Source: a virus (lineage: Duplodnaviria; Heunggongvirae; Uroviricota; Caudoviricetes). Taken from it: DNA of 48,077 nt. The position numbers and the translations under genes are program-made. Positions 4,370-47,900 of the stretch are shown here, one piece after another. Numbering within the stretch: position 1 is the first letter of the stretch; each line of letters begins with the position of its first letter. The notes beneath the pieces were generated by a model that worked only from the letters and a program-made list of their open reading frames with translations, was not told where the DNA came from and ran no database searches. Location of the stretch: the IMG/VR virus record IMGVR_UViG_3300009551_000042. The stretch is one strand, 5' to 3'.

Positions 4370-5104
4370 ATGGTCCGCAACAAGCGCAAGGCGAAGCCCG
4401 GAAATCCAGGCCTAGCGATCGGCTACATCCGAGCCAGCAAAGAGGATCAGGCGCTCACACCTCGGGCCCAGGCCCATGCGCTCGACGCATGGGCGGAGCG
4501 CATGGGCGTGACGTTGGTTGCTGTGTTCTTTGACCTAGGCCTATCCGGCTCGCTAGGGCTCGCCGCAGACGGCTTTCCGGAGCTTGAGAAGCGGCCAGGC
4601 CTAGCCGAAGCCCTGCAAGCGCTCCGCGTGCTCCATGCTGGCTCACTGGTTGTCGCCAAGCGCGATCGGCTTGCCCGTGACGTCACCTTGGCCGGCCTAC
4701 TCGGGCGCATGGCCGGCCATGCTGGCGCACGCATCATCAGCGCCGCTGGTGAGGGCACCGAGCTTGCCGACTCCGAAGACGGCGACGACATGCGCTTGCT
4801 TTATGACATGTTCGCTCAGCGAGAGCGCCGGCTCATCCGGAGCCGCACCAAAGCGGCACTAGCGGTCAAGAAGGCGCGCGGTGAGCGCATCGGGCAAGTG
4901 CCCTACGGCTGGCGCCTGGCGGCCGACGGCGTGACCCTTGAGGTCGACCCGCTCGAACTGGCCACGCTGGAGCACATCAAAGCCGAACGGGCCCGAGGCG
5001 TGAGCCTGCGCGGCATCGTCGCGGACCTGAACGAAGCTGGAGCCTTCGCTCGCGGGTCAAGGTGGCACCTGACGACCATTGCCCGAGTGCTCCGCAAGCC
5101 GTGA
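4370..5104 (+). CDS. serine recombinase (resolvase/invertase family with short C-terminal recombinase domain)
   Basis: GYIRAS catalytic motif, D-x-G-x-SG, RPGL, KRDRLAR, ER..I..RTKAAL, G..PYG, and a terminal helix-turn-helix (W..TTIARVL). Confidence 0.92.
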   Translation: MVRNKRKAKPGNPGLAIGYIRASKEDQALTPRAQAHALDAWAERMGVTLVAVFFDLGLSGSLGLAADGFPELEKRPGLAEALQALRVLHAGSLVVAKRDRLARDVTLAGLLGRMAGHAGARIISAAGEGTELADSEDGDDMRLLYDMFAQRERRLIRSRTKAALAVKKARGERIGQVPYGWRLAADGVTLEVDPLELATLEHIKAERARGVSLRGIVADLNEAGAFARGSRWHLTTIARVLRKP

Positions 5105-14066: not shown

Positions 14067-14232
14067 ACAACGCATCGCCGACTTGGAGCGCGCGCTGGCG
14101 CTCTTCATGTCCGCTTTCATGATGAGTCAACATAAGCACTACCGCTACATGCAACAGGGCGGCCGCATCCGGTTCACGTTCGAGGATGTTTACGATGGGT
14201 CAACAAACATTGACTACGAGCCTGCGCAGTAA
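14053..14232 (+). CDS. hypothetical protein
   Basis: TTG 14053 with GGAGG 7 nt upstream. Confidence 0.5.
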   Translation: MLSNEQRIADLERALALFMSAFMMSQHKHYRYMQQGGRIRFTFEDVYDGSTNIDYEPAQ

Positions 14233-14839
14233 ATTTAATGCGCTATGGTCGCGTCTGCAGGCCAAGGGGGACTCTGACCCATACTACGACTTGCTGTGCG
14301 AGTCCTATTCCGCGTTCCCGCGCGCCTATCACACGCTAGAGCACATTGATAAGTGCCTCGATGCCCTGCCCGAGCTGGCGCCGAATCAACCGGACGAATT
14401 CCTAGATCCCATTCGTTGGGCTATCTGGTTTCACGACGCCTGCATGAGCTTTGGTGGCCCGGGGAAGGATGAGGAAGACTCTGCGGATCTAGCCTGTGAC
14501 ATCGCGGCCGAGGTCGGAATCCCGCACGGGGCAACGCGCCGGCTGATTCTTGCAACCAAAACCCACGTTGCGACGCTGCCCGACGAAGCGTTGCTGCTGG
14601 ACGCAGACCTTTCGATCCTGGCAGCGCCATCGGACATCTTCTGGCGCTACGAGGGACAGGTACGCCAGGAATACGCACACGTCCCCGACGAGATCTATCG
14701 CCCTGCGCGCCGTCGCATCCTGCAGTCGTTCAGGGACAGGCGTCAGATTTACCAGTCACCACACGGGTTCCACGAATGGGAACGCAAAGCACGCTTCAAC
14801 TTGGGTCAGTCGATCGCCGGCCTTGGCGGGGTCGACTGA
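14186..14839 (+). CDS. HD-superfamily metal-dependent phosphohydrolase (COG4339-like)
   Basis: RAYHTLEH, AIWFHDA, LILATKTH, LLDADLSIL, YE.QVRQEYAHVP, IY...E..AR.NL; true start may be slightly downstream. Confidence 0.85.
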   Translation: MFTMGQQTLTTSLRSKFNALWSRLQAKGDSDPYYDLLCESYSAFPRAYHTLEHIDKCLDALPELAPNQPDEFLDPIRWAIWFHDACMSFGGPGKDEEDSADLACDIAAEVGIPHGATRRLILATKTHVATLPDEALLLDADLSILAAPSDIFWRYEGQVRQEYAHVPDEIYRPARRRILQSFRDRRQIYQSPHGFHEWERKARFNLGQSIAGLGGVD

Positions 14840-17751: not shown

Positions 17752-18173
17752 GGGAGCCGGTGGATTCGGTTGTGATGCGCCACGCGCTAGAAGACTCCCA
17801 AGAGCGCGACTTCGCGCGCCGGGTGGAGCCACTAGTTGCCAAGCTCCACGTTGGATACAACTACTTCGAACCGGAAGAGTTCCACGACCTAGCCTGCTAC
17901 TTCACCGAAGGTCGCGCCCGAACAGATGCTGTCAACGATGGCGTTTTCAGGGTCTCAAAGAAGGTCGACGTCATTCGTACGGGATCCGGAACTCTTCAAA
18001 CAATGACCGAGCTTTCCCGCAATTTGGGTGTAGCTCGACAGACGCTCCAAGACTGGGTCGGCACTTTGAAACTTCCGCACCGCTTCCGCGGCAAGCGAAA
18101 GGTCTATAATATCAATGAATTGCGCCGCTATCTGCTGGGCAGACGTGAAGGGGATAACAAGGGTTTACGGTAA
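17745..18173 (+). CDS. protein with C-terminal MerR/excisionase-like HTH
   Basis: TMTELSRNLGVARQTLQDWV..LKLP....GKRKVYNINELRRYL. Confidence 0.75.
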   Translation: MVREPVDSVVMRHALEDSQERDFARRVEPLVAKLHVGYNYFEPEEFHDLACYFTEGRARTDAVNDGVFRVSKKVDVIRTGSGTLQTMTELSRNLGVARQTLQDWVGTLKLPHRFRGKRKVYNINELRRYLLGRREGDNKGLR

Positions 18174-18314
18174 CCCCGCGACGAACCACCTGACTGTCGG
18201 CGTCAAAACCGTCCGCTTTCATGCGCCAATTCGTTTTCGCGGCGCTCCTGTACCTGGAGCCGTATCTAGTCTACCTGCCGTACTCCCCCGCTGTTGCTCA
18301 GCTCTGGGGGTAAC

Positions 18315-18566
18315 ATGATCTCGGTACCCGCCGGCAACGATTACACGCCATGGGTACCGCTGCAGTCCGGAGCCTGCAAAGCTTGCGGACGCGCTGGTTC
18401 CGGCAAAGACCCGAACGAAGTCTTCTCCTACCCGAAGACCGCTGAATCGCTCGTCCTGTGCACTGCGTGTGCTCGTGGGTTGACGATGTGCATAGCCAAA
18501 GAGCTGAAGCAACGGCATGCCAAAAAGCCCACGCCGCCAAAGGCTCCGGCGAAGGTATCTGCGTAA
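18315..18566 (+). CDS. zinc-finger protein
   Basis: GGGGG SD; CKAC...CTAC. Confidence 0.6.
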   Translation: MISVPAGNDYTPWVPLQSGACKACGRAGSGKDPNEVFSYPKTAESLVLCTACARGLTMCIAKELKQRHAKKPTPPKAPAKVSA

Positions 18567-18572
18567 ACGATT

Positions 18573-18650
18573 GGGCCACATTGGTGTCGATTGTGGGCAA
18601 AGCCTCAAGGTCCCCGCAAGACGAGGGTTCGATTCCCTCATGGTCCACCA
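18573..18650 (+). ncRNA. tmRNA tRNA-like-domain-only RNA (no mRNA-like domain)
   Basis: GGGCCAC-ATTGGTGTCGA-TTGTGGG-(15 nt)-CCCGCAA-GAC-GAGGG-TTCGATT-CCCTC-ATGGTCC-A-CCA: G3:U70, A73, encoded CCA, stemless D-loop ending TCGA, GAC linker, canonical T arm. Confidence 0.75.
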
Positions 18651-18731
18651 TGGTGTGAGACGCTGGTTCGAATCCAGCCTCCCAGAGCGATGCTCCAGGA
18701 GTAGCTCAGTGGGAGAGCGCACGCCGCTAAA
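18651..18731 (+). ncRNA. circularly permuted tRNA mimic (T arm before D arm, acceptor stem closed by a loop; YrlA-like topology)
   Basis: TGGTGTG-AGAC-GCTGG TTCGAAT CCAGC-CTCC CA GAGC GAT GCTC CA GGAG-TA-GCTC AGTGGGA GAGC-G-CACGCCG. Confidence 0.7.
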
Positions 18732-18735
18732 CTTC

Positions 18736-18885
18736 GCCGATGTGTCGGCCAGCTAATCCTCGGCAGGGGACCCTGGGACGCATCGGCTTTAATCGAAACA
18801 ACCAGGTAGAGCTTCGCTCCCGGTTGCGTGAGGTGAACGACATGGAAACACGTGACGTTGGCCTTCAGCCCCGCGGTGACGGGGG
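18736..18885 (+). ncRNA. run of four stem-loops in the leader of the small terminase gene
   Basis: GCCGATGTGTC/GACGCATCGGC (18736-18787); CAACC.GG..GAG/CTC.CCGGTTG (18799-18825); AGG..AACG.ACATG-GAAA-CACGT..CGTT..CCT (18831-18864); CCCC/GGGG (18869-18884). Confidence 0.45.
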
Positions 18886-18896
18886 AAATCATCACC

Positions 18897-19415
18897 ATGC
18901 CGAAGAAGAACGCTAGACAACAAGCGATCGAGATTCGCCGAGGCGAAGTGACAAAGCTTCGCACCAAAGGCAATCGCACCTATCGCGAAATAGCCGAGAA
19001 GCTCAACGTAAGTGTTGGGACTGTTGTCGGTGACATGTGGCACGTCCTCGACAATGTGCGCTCGCAACAAGAAATCGACGTCGAAAAATGTCGTGACGTT
19101 GAGCTAGCGCAACTCGACTTCTTTATGACGAAGGTTCTGGCCATCGTCACCGATGAAACAGATCGCGATCTCGTCTTGAAGGCGATTGATCGTGGCGTGA
19201 AGCTGTCCGAACGACGCTCCCGCTTGCTGGGCCTTGATGCGCCTGAGCGCCAGGAGGTTGCAACGGTCGATCTCACCGAAGCAACTCCGGAACGTGCTCG
19301 CGCGATCATGAACGAGCTGTTCCCCGCAATTGGGAATGACACAAATACTGAGGGGCAGCGGGAACAATCCCGCGAACCGGGACTTCTTGTCACGACTGGA
19401 GAGAGCGTTCCCTGA
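18897..19415 (+). CDS. terS: terminase small subunit (N-terminal HTH)
   Basis: TYREIAEKLNVSVGTV HTH, RRSRLLGLDAP motif, directly upstream of and overlapping terL. Confidence 0.75.
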   Translation: MPKKNARQQAIEIRRGEVTKLRTKGNRTYREIAEKLNVSVGTVVGDMWHVLDNVRSQQEIDVEKCRDVELAQLDFFMTKVLAIVTDETDRDLVLKAIDRGVKLSERRSRLLGLDAPERQEVATVDLTEATPERARAIMNELFPAIGNDTNTEGQREQSREPGLLVTTGESVP

Positions 19416-44928: not shown

Positions 44929-47900
44929 ATGGCTCTCTCAGCTGCCTTCACTGTTGAAGGCAACGCTAACCCTGCGCGCCATCAGGTTGCGTATGGGTCT
45001 ACCGTTGACCTTGCGCTCACGTCAACGGACGGAGCTACGTCAATCGTTTGGGAAATCATGGCTTGTTCCGATCCGGACGAGCCGATCCCGGCGATCACAC
45101 CTACTGGTAATCCCTACGGTAAGACGGCGTCGTTCGTCATGCCTGCGGATAGCGGTGACACGCTGGGCCGCACTTTCATTGTCCGTTGCACGGTTTCTAA
45201 CCAGGTACGCGGGGCTGATGGTGAGTACCAAACGGCTCGCGAATACGCGGTCATTGGCGCAGTCAACTCCCAGGGTCGTCTTCCGATTGTTCCCGGCGAG
45301 AAGAACTACCGCAACGGTACGCACGGCTGGGCGCCTGAAATCAACGAGCTGCTAAACCAGAGTGGTGGCGGCGGCGGTGGTGGCGGATCCGGAGGTGGTT
45401 GGACCGATGACGGTGCGATCGTTCGCCTCACCACCGCTGGTGACTCAGTGGCCATCGGAAGCGCTCTGCTTTCCGGCTCCGAAAAGCTTCGCGTGGTCGG
45501 TGATTCTCGCTTTGAGCAAGCGGCGGCCACGTCGGGTATCCCGAAAGCGCTTTTCGTCTCGGGTGCTGGTCATACGGGTCTCACCGCGAGCGCTGAGATC
45601 GTTGACGTCGACTTCTCGTTGAGCCGCACGGTTCAGCGAGCCACGGGTGGAGTTACGACGCAACGCGCGTTCGTTGTGCGCGCTCCGACTTATGGGTTTG
45701 TCGGTTCGAGCACCATCACGGACGCTGCGACGTTCGCGATCACTGGTGCTCCTGCTGCTGGAACTAACGCGACAATCACCAACGGCTATGCACTGTGGGT
45801 GCAGGCTGGTGCAGTGCGCTTCGCCTCGCTCGGAGCGGGCGTTGTGCAATCCAGCGCTACGGGTGTGCTGTCGGCCGGAACGTTGACCATTGCCAATGGC
45901 GGGACCGGCCTCACGTCGGCCGGTGGCACTGCAAACCGCGTGCTGATGACCGCGGACGGTTCGACGTTCGTAATGGCTCAGCCGCCGCTTGGCGCGCTAG
46001 CCGATCTCACTGGTCTATCCGTTCCAGGCCGAGCTGCAAACACTTCCGGCGTCATGGCCGCCATTACGGCGACCAACGACGGCGAAGTTCTACGCCGCTC
46101 AGGCACAGCTATCGGTTTCGGAACTGTTGCGACTGCCGGCATCGGTGACAACCAGGTCACGCTAGCCAAGCTTGCCACGCAGGCGGCCTACAGCGTTCTG
46201 GTAAACGCCACCAATGCAACGGCGGTTCCGACTGCGCTTGCCGCAACAGCCGACGGCCAGGTGCTCACGCGCTCCGGAACGGCCCTCATCTGGTCGACGG
46301 TTGCGGCAGCTGGCATCGCGGACGGGTCACTCGCGTACGCAAAGCTAGTCAACGGAACCGGCCTCAGCGTTATTGGGCGCAGCCCAAACACCGCGGGCGT
46401 AAATGCTGACATCGTCGCTGCGAATGATGGCGAAGTGCTTCGCCGTAACGGCGCCGCACTCGGCTTCGGCACGATCAGCACAGCTGGTATTGGCGACAAC
46501 CAAATAACGCTAGCGAAGCTTGCAACGCAGGCCGCGATGAGCGTCCTCGCGAACGCGACGAACACCACCGCTGTCCCAAGCGCCGTTGCAGCTGGCTCCG
46601 ATGGTCAAGTCTTCCTGCGTTCTGGAACCTCACTGGCCTTCGGAACAATCGCGACAGCAGGCATCACCGATGCGGCTGTCACCTACGTCAAGGTCCAACA
46701 CGGAACAGGGCTGAGCGTTGTTGGCCGTTCGCCGAACAGCGCTGGTGTCAATGCGGACATCGTTGCATCCAATGATGGCGACGTGCTTCGCCGTTCAGGA
46801 GCCTCGATCGGTTTCGGCTCGATCCCGGTTGGAAGCGTGTCGTTTGGCGCTGCCTCGACTGGCCAAGCGCTGATCTATAACGGGAGCGCATGGACGCCAG
46901 GCACCGACTTCGGTGCTCAGGTGCTGGTCACGACTGGCGGAGTCACCGCCGGTTCCGGCACTGCGCCCGCGACTGGTGCTATCCGGCTTCCGAACAGCGC
47001 GTATATCTATTCGCGCACGACGACGGCCGCGGATGTCGCGTTGTTGGGTATCAGCAACGGTGACGGAGTCATTCTTGGCAATACCACTTGCCAGACGATC
47101 ATCAACGGTTCGGCTGGCGCATCCGCTGTTCGCTTTCTAGCGAACGCCGCCGAGGTGTTTCGCGTAGGCACCACGATCACCACGTTCACGAACACGTTCC
47201 AATGGGACGCATCGTCGACCGCGATGACGATCAACCAGGTCGCCAAGACTACGGCCAGCGGCGCCGCGGCGTCGTTCTCGGCTCAGTCGACCTCGTTCGC
47301 TGGTGGCACTGGCGGATCGATGACGATCGCGGCCGGCGACTCGAACGGAGCCAGCGGCACACGCACGGGTGGCGCACTCGTGATGCGCTCCGGTACCGGC
47401 ACAACCATTGCCGGCGAAGTCACCATCAACCGCGGCAGCGACACCGCGTTCGCGACACTGACCACCGCCGCACAGGTTGGTGGTCCTGGTTTCGCGCACG
47501 CCGACCTTGCCGCAACGACTGACTTTCGCTTCCGCGACACATCCGGGAACACCCGTCACACCTGGACGCTGACCGCATACAGCGGCCGCCTCGCGACGTT
47601 TACGATCGACTCCGGAACCGCTAGTGCCTCTGACTGGGCCTACGCTGGCGCAGGTAACGCTACTGGCTTTCGTTGGCGTTTCACCGGTCAGCCGGCGCTC
47701 ACGACCGGCGGTGACTTCCAGGTCTTCGCTGGCGACGGCTCCGCATCGACCGGAACGGTGGTGGGCGGTGCGCTCTACCTGCAAGCGGGCTCAGCAACTG
47801 GCGCGACAGCCACACACACAGGCGGACTAACAACCCTTGCTGGTGGCGACGCAACCGGAGCGAGCGGAACTCGTACGGGTGGTGGCGTCACTATCCGTGT

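Follow-up and report, generated by a model that had tools for sequence, protein, structure and literature searches.

A tag-less tmRNA gene and a permuted tRNA-like domain form an optional insert before a conserved terS leader in an uncultured tailed phage

Introduction

What is encoded between the last small open reading frame and the probable terminase small subunit gene (terS) of an uncultured tailed phage, and do the RNA structures packed there act together? The phage encodes terL, portal, capsid, tail sheath and baseplate proteins within the window (the whole 48,077-nt stretch of DNA analysed here), and at 18567–18896 its structured elements are separated by spacers of only 1–11 nt. A first-pass annotation of this DNA read them as one ‘translation-mimic’ cassette at the early/late switch: two tRNA-shaped RNAs and four hairpins, aimed at ribosome rescue or anticodon-nuclease-type defences rather than at codon supplementation. 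We find that the region is three independent things, namely an optional two-RNA insert, an older conserved terS leader and lineage-specific hairpins (Table 1).

Table 1 Features at the terS locus and related elements in other phages.
Feature	Position	Strand	Remarks
Upstream flank, 83-aa CxxC..CxxC (Zn-finger) ORF	18315..18566	+	Present in clade
TLD-only (tag-less) tmRNA gene	18573..18650	+	Rfam, anatomy, family covariation
TLD acceptor stem	18573-18579 / 18640-18646	+	G3-U70; C7xA66 mismatch
TLD P2 stem	18591-18597 / 18613-18619	+	AAA bulge, small capping hairpin
TLD T arm	18623-18639	+	
TLD A73 and CCA	18647-18650	+	
Circularly permuted tRNA-like domain	18652..18725	+	YrlA-type core without Ro60-binding stem
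Permuted domain, closing stem	18652-18657 / 18720-18725	+	6-bp anticodon-stem equivalent
Permuted domain, T arm	18662-18678	+	
Permuted domain, closed acceptor-like stem-loop	18679-18701	+	
Permuted domain, U8-A9 and D arm	18702-18718	+	
H1, long irregular hairpin	18736..18787	+	~20 bp; z -4.2; window phage only
Conserved terS-leader element	18792..18866	+	Separate from both RNA genes
H2	18799-18826	+	Covarying
H3	18830-18866	+	Pairs over Shine-Dalgarno GAGGT 18830-18834 and ATG at 18842
Leader ORF (uORF), 24 aa	18842..18916	+	Overlaps terS start
H4, weak hairpin before terS ATG	18875..18896	+	z -1.5, chance level, not conserved
Downstream flank, probable terS	18897..19415	+	HTH protein directly before terL
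Unannotated TLD-only tmRNA, LuckySocke	L456:3001-3080		Cultured Streptomyces phage, within tRNA array
Unannotated TLD-only tmRNA, BRock	L457:2990-3069		Cultured Streptomyces phage, within tRNA array
Unannotated TLD-only tmRNA, Shaeky	L458:2990-3072		Cultured Streptomyces phage, within tRNA array
ACGC..CGCTGGCGGT.AA motif before terS	L314:4505-4524, L316:4486-4505, L207:4407-4427, L478:3376-3395, L481:3481-3500		

Results

Setting of the locus

The window covers 48 of the 112 kb of its contig (112,077 nt, with 64 kb lying beyond the window), and ARAGORN finds no canonical tRNA within these 48 kb, in agreement with the first-pass annotation. The stop codon of the upstream Zn-finger ORF is the left edge of the insertion slot. 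The downstream gene probably encodes the terminase small subunit, a call made from its position; its product matches PHROG 645, which is labelled ‘Rnase E’. Placement at an early/late switch was not confirmed, as every gene surrounding 18567–18896 lies on the plus strand, neither a promoter nor a terminator was identified in this region, and across relatives the terS block is accompanied by two small ORFs and a conserved motif upstream, which travel with it.

That upstream motif (18161–18220, between an HTH gene and a 30-aa hydrophobic ORF) is non-coding and near-identical in eight phages. It contains a GGGT/ACCC hairpin whose ACGGT loop can pair with a downstream ACCGT, both sides being changed in one relative (L207), which suggests a pseudoknot; alternatively, the motif could be a late promoter. 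An Rfam search of the motif gave no match at E up to 10. The small ORF that follows (18221–18313) is conserved as a hydrophobic, Pro/Tyr-rich product of 28–31 aa without an evident Shine-Dalgarno sequence and was overlooked by gene callers in relatives. Elsewhere, the window (1–48077) encodes an AlkB-type 2OG-Fe(II) oxygenase, a YccV-like protein, a resolvase (4370–5104) and a phosphohydrolase (14186–14839). As a clue to the host, TLD-only matches were sought in 201 genomes of one class, with none found, Atlas look-ups pointed to no host either, and a scan for relatives through a gene close to the window end likewise found none.

A tmRNA reduced to its tRNA-like domain

The first element is a tmRNA consisting of the tRNA-like domain (TLD) only, as the first-pass annotation had proposed. 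The Rfam tmRNA model (RF00023) aligns with both ends of 18573–18650, 13 nt replacing its 308-position middle, and scores 34.5 bits (E 1.4e-11) where the gathering score is 47; as ordinary 76-nt host RNAs also reach ~37 bits against this model, the call rests on anatomy, which is specific. The element has G3-U70, A73, an encoded CCA, a UCGA loop and a P2 stem of 7 bp that carries an A-rich bulge and a small cap; a D stem is absent, GAC precedes the T arm, and 29 nt separate UCGA from GAC. The UCGA loop and P2 stem are the features predicted to form the SmpB site. A full-length tmRNA is not what lies at 18573–18650, which has no tag frame and scores under the RF00023 gathering level. Against a model of the TLD-only type it scores 67 bits, the same sequence being among the 93 training rows of that model.

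Acceptor pairs 1–6 form, and position 7-66 is mismatched (C7xA66) in all six copies from the clade. Four of the six do not encode CCA, so 3′ maturation of the TLD would be needed. A coding reading of the insert was rejected, since the length differences between copies are not multiples of three. When the region was compared with cultured phages by BLAST, only matches the size of a T arm were returned.

Tag-less tmRNAs are widespread in phages

A pattern scan of IMG/VR for the TLD-only design returned at least 120 loci with at least 92 distinct sequences, mostly of 76–80 nt. Among the matches listed, the 92 distinct sequences had acceptor pairs 4–7, which the pattern does not fix, paired in 367 of 368 cells, and the types of pair vary; the best of six registers was taken for this count. 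The first eight pairs of P2 were paired in 682 of 744 cells among these matches, against 357 ± 13 with partners shuffled. C74, also left free by the pattern, was kept in 84 of the 92 listed family members while only 17 of the 92 encode CCA, as expected of an RNA matured like a tRNA; the 3′ maturation proposed in the first-pass annotation is thus likely.

Neighbours of the listed loci are varied (head genes, helicase, terminase), with tRNAs near 25 of the 92. No smpB gene was present in any of the 53 TLD-phage records among the matches listed, so the SmpB partner of the TLD must be that of the host. A full-length tmRNA was co-present in one of 35 TLD records among the matches listed. One complete 123.6-kb phage (L008, record G025) carries a TLD-only RNA at 46486–46567 and a 392-nt full-length tmRNA at 77588–77979.

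The family extends to cultured Streptomyces phages, in which it had gone unannotated (Table 1). GiJojo, pSt2308 and Alone3 gave matches resembling these Streptomyces phage copies, and two of the cultured carriers, LuckySocke and BRock, have genes for TROVE and an RNA ligase as well.

A permuted tRNA-like core without a Ro60 stem

One base past the TLD CCA begins a second element (18652–18725), whose parts run in the order anticodon-stem 3′ strand, variable loop, T arm, closed acceptor-like stem-loop, U8-A9, D arm and anticodon-stem 5′ strand. The permuted order is that of the YrlA tRNA-like domain (PMC4201824, 10.1101/312249). The permuted tRNA mimic named in the first-pass annotation is borne out by a folding z of -2.65, a match to Rfam YrlA (RF02553; 24.8 bits, E 0.024) and the conservation of its pairs in relatives; for the window copy alone another fold is favoured by 2.8 kcal/mol, and the relatives keep the tRNA-like pairs. 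Across 18 phage sequences, 94.8% of cells in the core are paired and 12 of 18 pairs are changed on both sides, with slid controls below 50%; the closing and acceptor-like stems covary. U8, A14, G15, C48, U54, C56 and A58 are invariant in all 18, a statement that does not extend to the D-stem bases, which were partly fixed by the search pattern and whose invariance is not evidence. Both elements can thus be taken as selected RNA structures with conserved and covarying stems, and neither would be able to decode, there being no anticodon in either; on these two points the earlier reading stands.

The domain folds like the effector domain of YrlA and lacks two features of YrlA membership. Clade copies match the YrlA model over its core only (positions 23–85 of 114). 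A scan for the Ro60-binding motif GNCGAAN0-1G gave only a near-match, within the TLD T arm; as the same scan missed several Ro60-adjacent controls, the lack of the terminal stem is the stronger point. No TROVE (Ro60) gene occurs among the 107 ORFs of the window, so none lies within ~4 kb on the same strand. Of 20 phage records bearing a permuted domain, 9 have a Ro60 gene within ~1 kb, and 3 complete records are without any.

U33 is absent from all five permuted copies, as is an unbroken 7-bp acceptor with discriminator, and the domain can therefore not be rebuilt into a decoding tRNA. By the rule given in PMC4201824, the interrupted acceptor would also make it a poor substrate for RNase P. 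The claim of two free tRNA-shaped RNAs accordingly lacks support for this element, which has neither a perfect 7-bp acceptor nor a 3′ end signal and may stay on the terS mRNA.

Permuted domains occur in other settings too. In five loci (L328, L329, L330, L333 and L334) they have GCACAATTTTAG before them and tRNA-Met after, with no TROVE and with one of the records complete; an unrelated phage fragment (L051, 2031–2172 and 2306–2381) has two permuted domains in direct tandem, followed by a tRNA and a TLD-only RNA.

Hairpins and the terS leader

The four hairpins had been counted as part of the mimic module. As structures, H1 to H3 fold (z -4.2 for H1 and -2.8 for H2 and H3 together, 18799–18866) and H4 is at chance level. 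As members of such a module they do not stand, since H2 and H3 form a separate terS leader that is present without either RNA, and H1 and H4 are not conserved. At the position of H1, other phages have unrelated hairpins or none. H1 was rejected as an intrinsic terminator, and no terminator follows the permuted domain.

All ten of the phages that share this gene order have the leader, whether or not they carry the insert. In each, GAGGT is followed 6–8 nt on by an ATG that opens a leader ORF, usually of 17–44 codons, with neither peptide sequence nor length conserved. H2 is 98% paired across the ten, both partners being changed in 4 of its 11 pairs, and in the window the Shine-Dalgarno sequence and ATG are both predicted to be fully paired in H3. 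From these sequence features, H2/H3 reads as a translation-control leader of terS and not as a translation mimic. The model of the leader was built from the same ten phages and had no match in 74 other sources; IMG/VR scans with the leader motif gave one chance match in a coding region and otherwise none.

An Rfam search of H1–H4 found no match at E up to 10, and hammerhead, HDV-like, pistol and group II domain V patterns did not fit by eye. Just before terS, relatives have a third short motif, ACGC..CGCTGGCGGT.AA, which is absent from the window, where H4 stands in its place. In all, the locus exposes two undescribed structured leaders beside the packaging genes.

The two-RNA insert is optional

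Recurrence of the pair in relatives, the test set beforehand, was observed: the TLD and permuted domain stand in the same order before terS in L207, L314, L478 and L483, making five phages with the window, and these four copies carry compensatory changes in the closing, T and acceptor-like stems. One relative (L211) has the TLD without the mimic and an unrelated hairpin instead, and three (L315, L316 and L481) have neither RNA. From the Zn-finger ORF to the leader start codon there are 44–45 nt in L316 and L481, compared with 205–275 nt where the pair is present. The slot is thus an optional cargo site for RNA genes and not a fixed module.

In the phage closest by terL (L121, 72%), the slot is 763 nt long and holds a canonical tRNA-Met with several odd tRNA-like RNAs, so that the phrase ‘rather than codon supplementation’ does not suit the slot. 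Before terS, L121:1230–1805 contains Thr-like, Ala(TGC)-like (with a non-standard T loop) and Tyr-like (with a long insert) RNAs, the canonical tRNA-Met and long hairpins. More distant terL relatives have none of these elements in the slot. In the terL tree the window clusters with L121 and away from the remaining four carriers of the pair; the region is therefore mosaic, and a single insertion may be the source of all five copies.

Outside the clade, none of ~92 other TLD loci among the matches listed has an abutting permuted domain, and the two RNAs lie near each other, without abutting, only in L051 and perhaps L007. Both kinds of RNA are known, and the pairing of a TLD with what appears from its sequence to be a bare YrlA core was not found described in the literature.

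Discussion

On balance, and with moderate confidence, we favour a reading in which the TLD competes with host tmRNA, the permuted core persists as an elbow mimic and the leader is separate. Host RNase P would cut the TLD 5′ end from a read-through transcript, 6 nt past the upstream stop, and tRNA-type 3′ maturation would free the TLD, separate it from the mimic and release the 5′ end of the permuted RNA. The TLD could then be charged with alanine by host AlaRS and bind the SmpB and EF-Tu of the host; having neither resume codon nor tag frame, it would compete with host tmRNA for host SmpB, so that fewer stalled phage proteins would be tagged and degraded. The permuted RNA, uncharged and non-decoding, would persist as a stable elbow mimic, whether released or kept on the terS transcript as its structured 5′ end. 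A shared role for the two RNAs is likewise put forward conditionally, and the pair may be a single insertion inherited by descent.

Precedent for competition comes from mycobacteriophage DS6A, which has a TLD-only (CDS-less) tmRNA (tmRNA Website tmID 11587). In one heterologous experiment (Mao 2009), as related in PMC4131195 and PMC11915505, a DS6A-like TLD-only RNA inhibited tmRNA, perhaps through SmpB titration, and did so independently of whether it could be charged. Ribosome rescue as the aim, one of two named in the first-pass annotation, sits poorly with this result, the only experiment on such a molecule. The same result also raises a point against our reading, in that alanine identity is strongly kept although the inhibition described there needs no charging.

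That point gives the best-placed alternative its footing: tag-free rescue, which corresponds to the rescue idea of the first-pass annotation and in which alanylated TLD with SmpB would take the stalled chain and release the ribosome without a degradation tag, as tag-less mitochondrial tmRNAs may do. Across the listed family, alanine identity, the T arm and C74 are kept beyond the needs of a mere SmpB sponge, a full tmRNA may coexist with the TLD (one of the 35 listed records), and PMC11915505 gives tag-less organellar tmRNAs a presumed role in dealing with incomplete mRNAs. We nevertheless think it unlikely: an RNA that has no message part offers no stop codon at which release could occur, so that another factor would be needed, and the sole test of such a molecule gave inhibition (PMC4131195). 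Competition with host tmRNA is favoured over it, and either would spare phage proteins from tagging.

Less probable again is that the pair serves as a processing or stabilising device of the late transcript, in which tRNA-type cutting at the TLD would generate a new 5′ end, with the permuted domain shielding the terS–terL mRNA. This is compatible with competition. The permuted domain begins 0–5 nt past TLD position 76, in four relatives it ends a few nucleotides before the leader, no terminator was found after it, and protection of RNA by a tRNA-like fold has been proposed for YrlA (10.1101/312249); however, three relatives do without the insert, and both RNA types are found elsewhere in unrelated contexts (head genes, helicase genes and tRNA arrays). 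To a fusion of this idea with competition we give slightly less credence still: maturation of the mini-tmRNA would release a late inhibitor or diverter of host trans-translation and leave the packaging-gene transcript protected at its 5′ end by a tRNA elbow that acts independently of Ro60; the phage would in addition have a full-length tmRNA of its own and so switch rescue mode during infection.

We rate lower, as quite improbable, the proposal that both RNAs act as decoys for defence nucleases or sensors that target tRNA or tmRNA (PrrC, RloC, PARIS, or CoCoNuTs and other systems with SmpB-like domains). Patchy presence in the clade would fit arms-race cargo, and the elbow residues are invariant. 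Anticodon nucleases read the anticodon loop, and neither RNA has one to be cut. Defence systems predicted to bind tmRNA do exist (PMC11090510), but our literature search found no case tying either RNA type to defence.

Inert scars (an ssrA attP remnant together with two decayed tRNAs joined by their halves, or re-ligation of a permuted tRNA gene to a decoding tRNA) are largely refuted and far the least probable reading: the window does hold a resolvase gene and tandem tRNAs can mimic YrlA (PMC4201824), but the TLD is intact at both ends and its stems covary, the 25 commonest neighbour families of the TLD matches listed include no integrase, ARAGORN finds no tRNA at the locus, the closing and acceptor-like stems of the permuted domain covary, and each of its five copies lacks both U33 and a clean acceptor with discriminator.

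Comparison with known systems

The competing TLD and elbow mimic that we favour each resemble known RNAs in part. Permuted tRNA genes of Cyanidioschyzon merolae have their 3′ half ahead of the 5′ half and are broken at the anticodon loop, as is 18652–18725; unlike them, the phage domain allows no U33 or anticodon to be rebuilt and has an interrupted acceptor stem, so it would give no decoding tRNA. With the YrlA Y RNA (RF02553; PMC4201824; 10.1101/312249) it shares the permuted order and elbow residues, and differs in that the long terminal stem for Ro60 binding and the GNCGAAN0-1G motif are missing and the 48-kb window lacks a TROVE gene. The locus thereby offers a test of the role of the tRNA-mimic domain without Ro60.

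The TLD-only gene at 18573–18650 resembles the tag-less organellar tmRNAs of jakobid and oomycete mitochondria and Mallomonadaceae plastids (PMC11915505, PMC3985003) in being a tmRNA cut down to its tRNA-like domain; those, however, are the only tmRNA of their organelle, whereas the phage-borne RNA would meet an intact host tmRNA. With the TLD of DS6A, compared by description, it has in common that it is a phage gene with little beyond the tRNA-like domain of tmRNA, with alanine identity and no tag frame; it differs in adjoining a permuted tRNA core before terS and in its clade-specific C7xA66. With at least 92 distinct sequences, the TLD-only type is far commoner than this single published phage case. 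Only a single phage has a published tag-less tmRNA, yet this RNA belongs to a large unannotated family that includes cultured Streptomyces phages, and a switching-off or rerouting of host trans-translation by phages is therefore directly testable.
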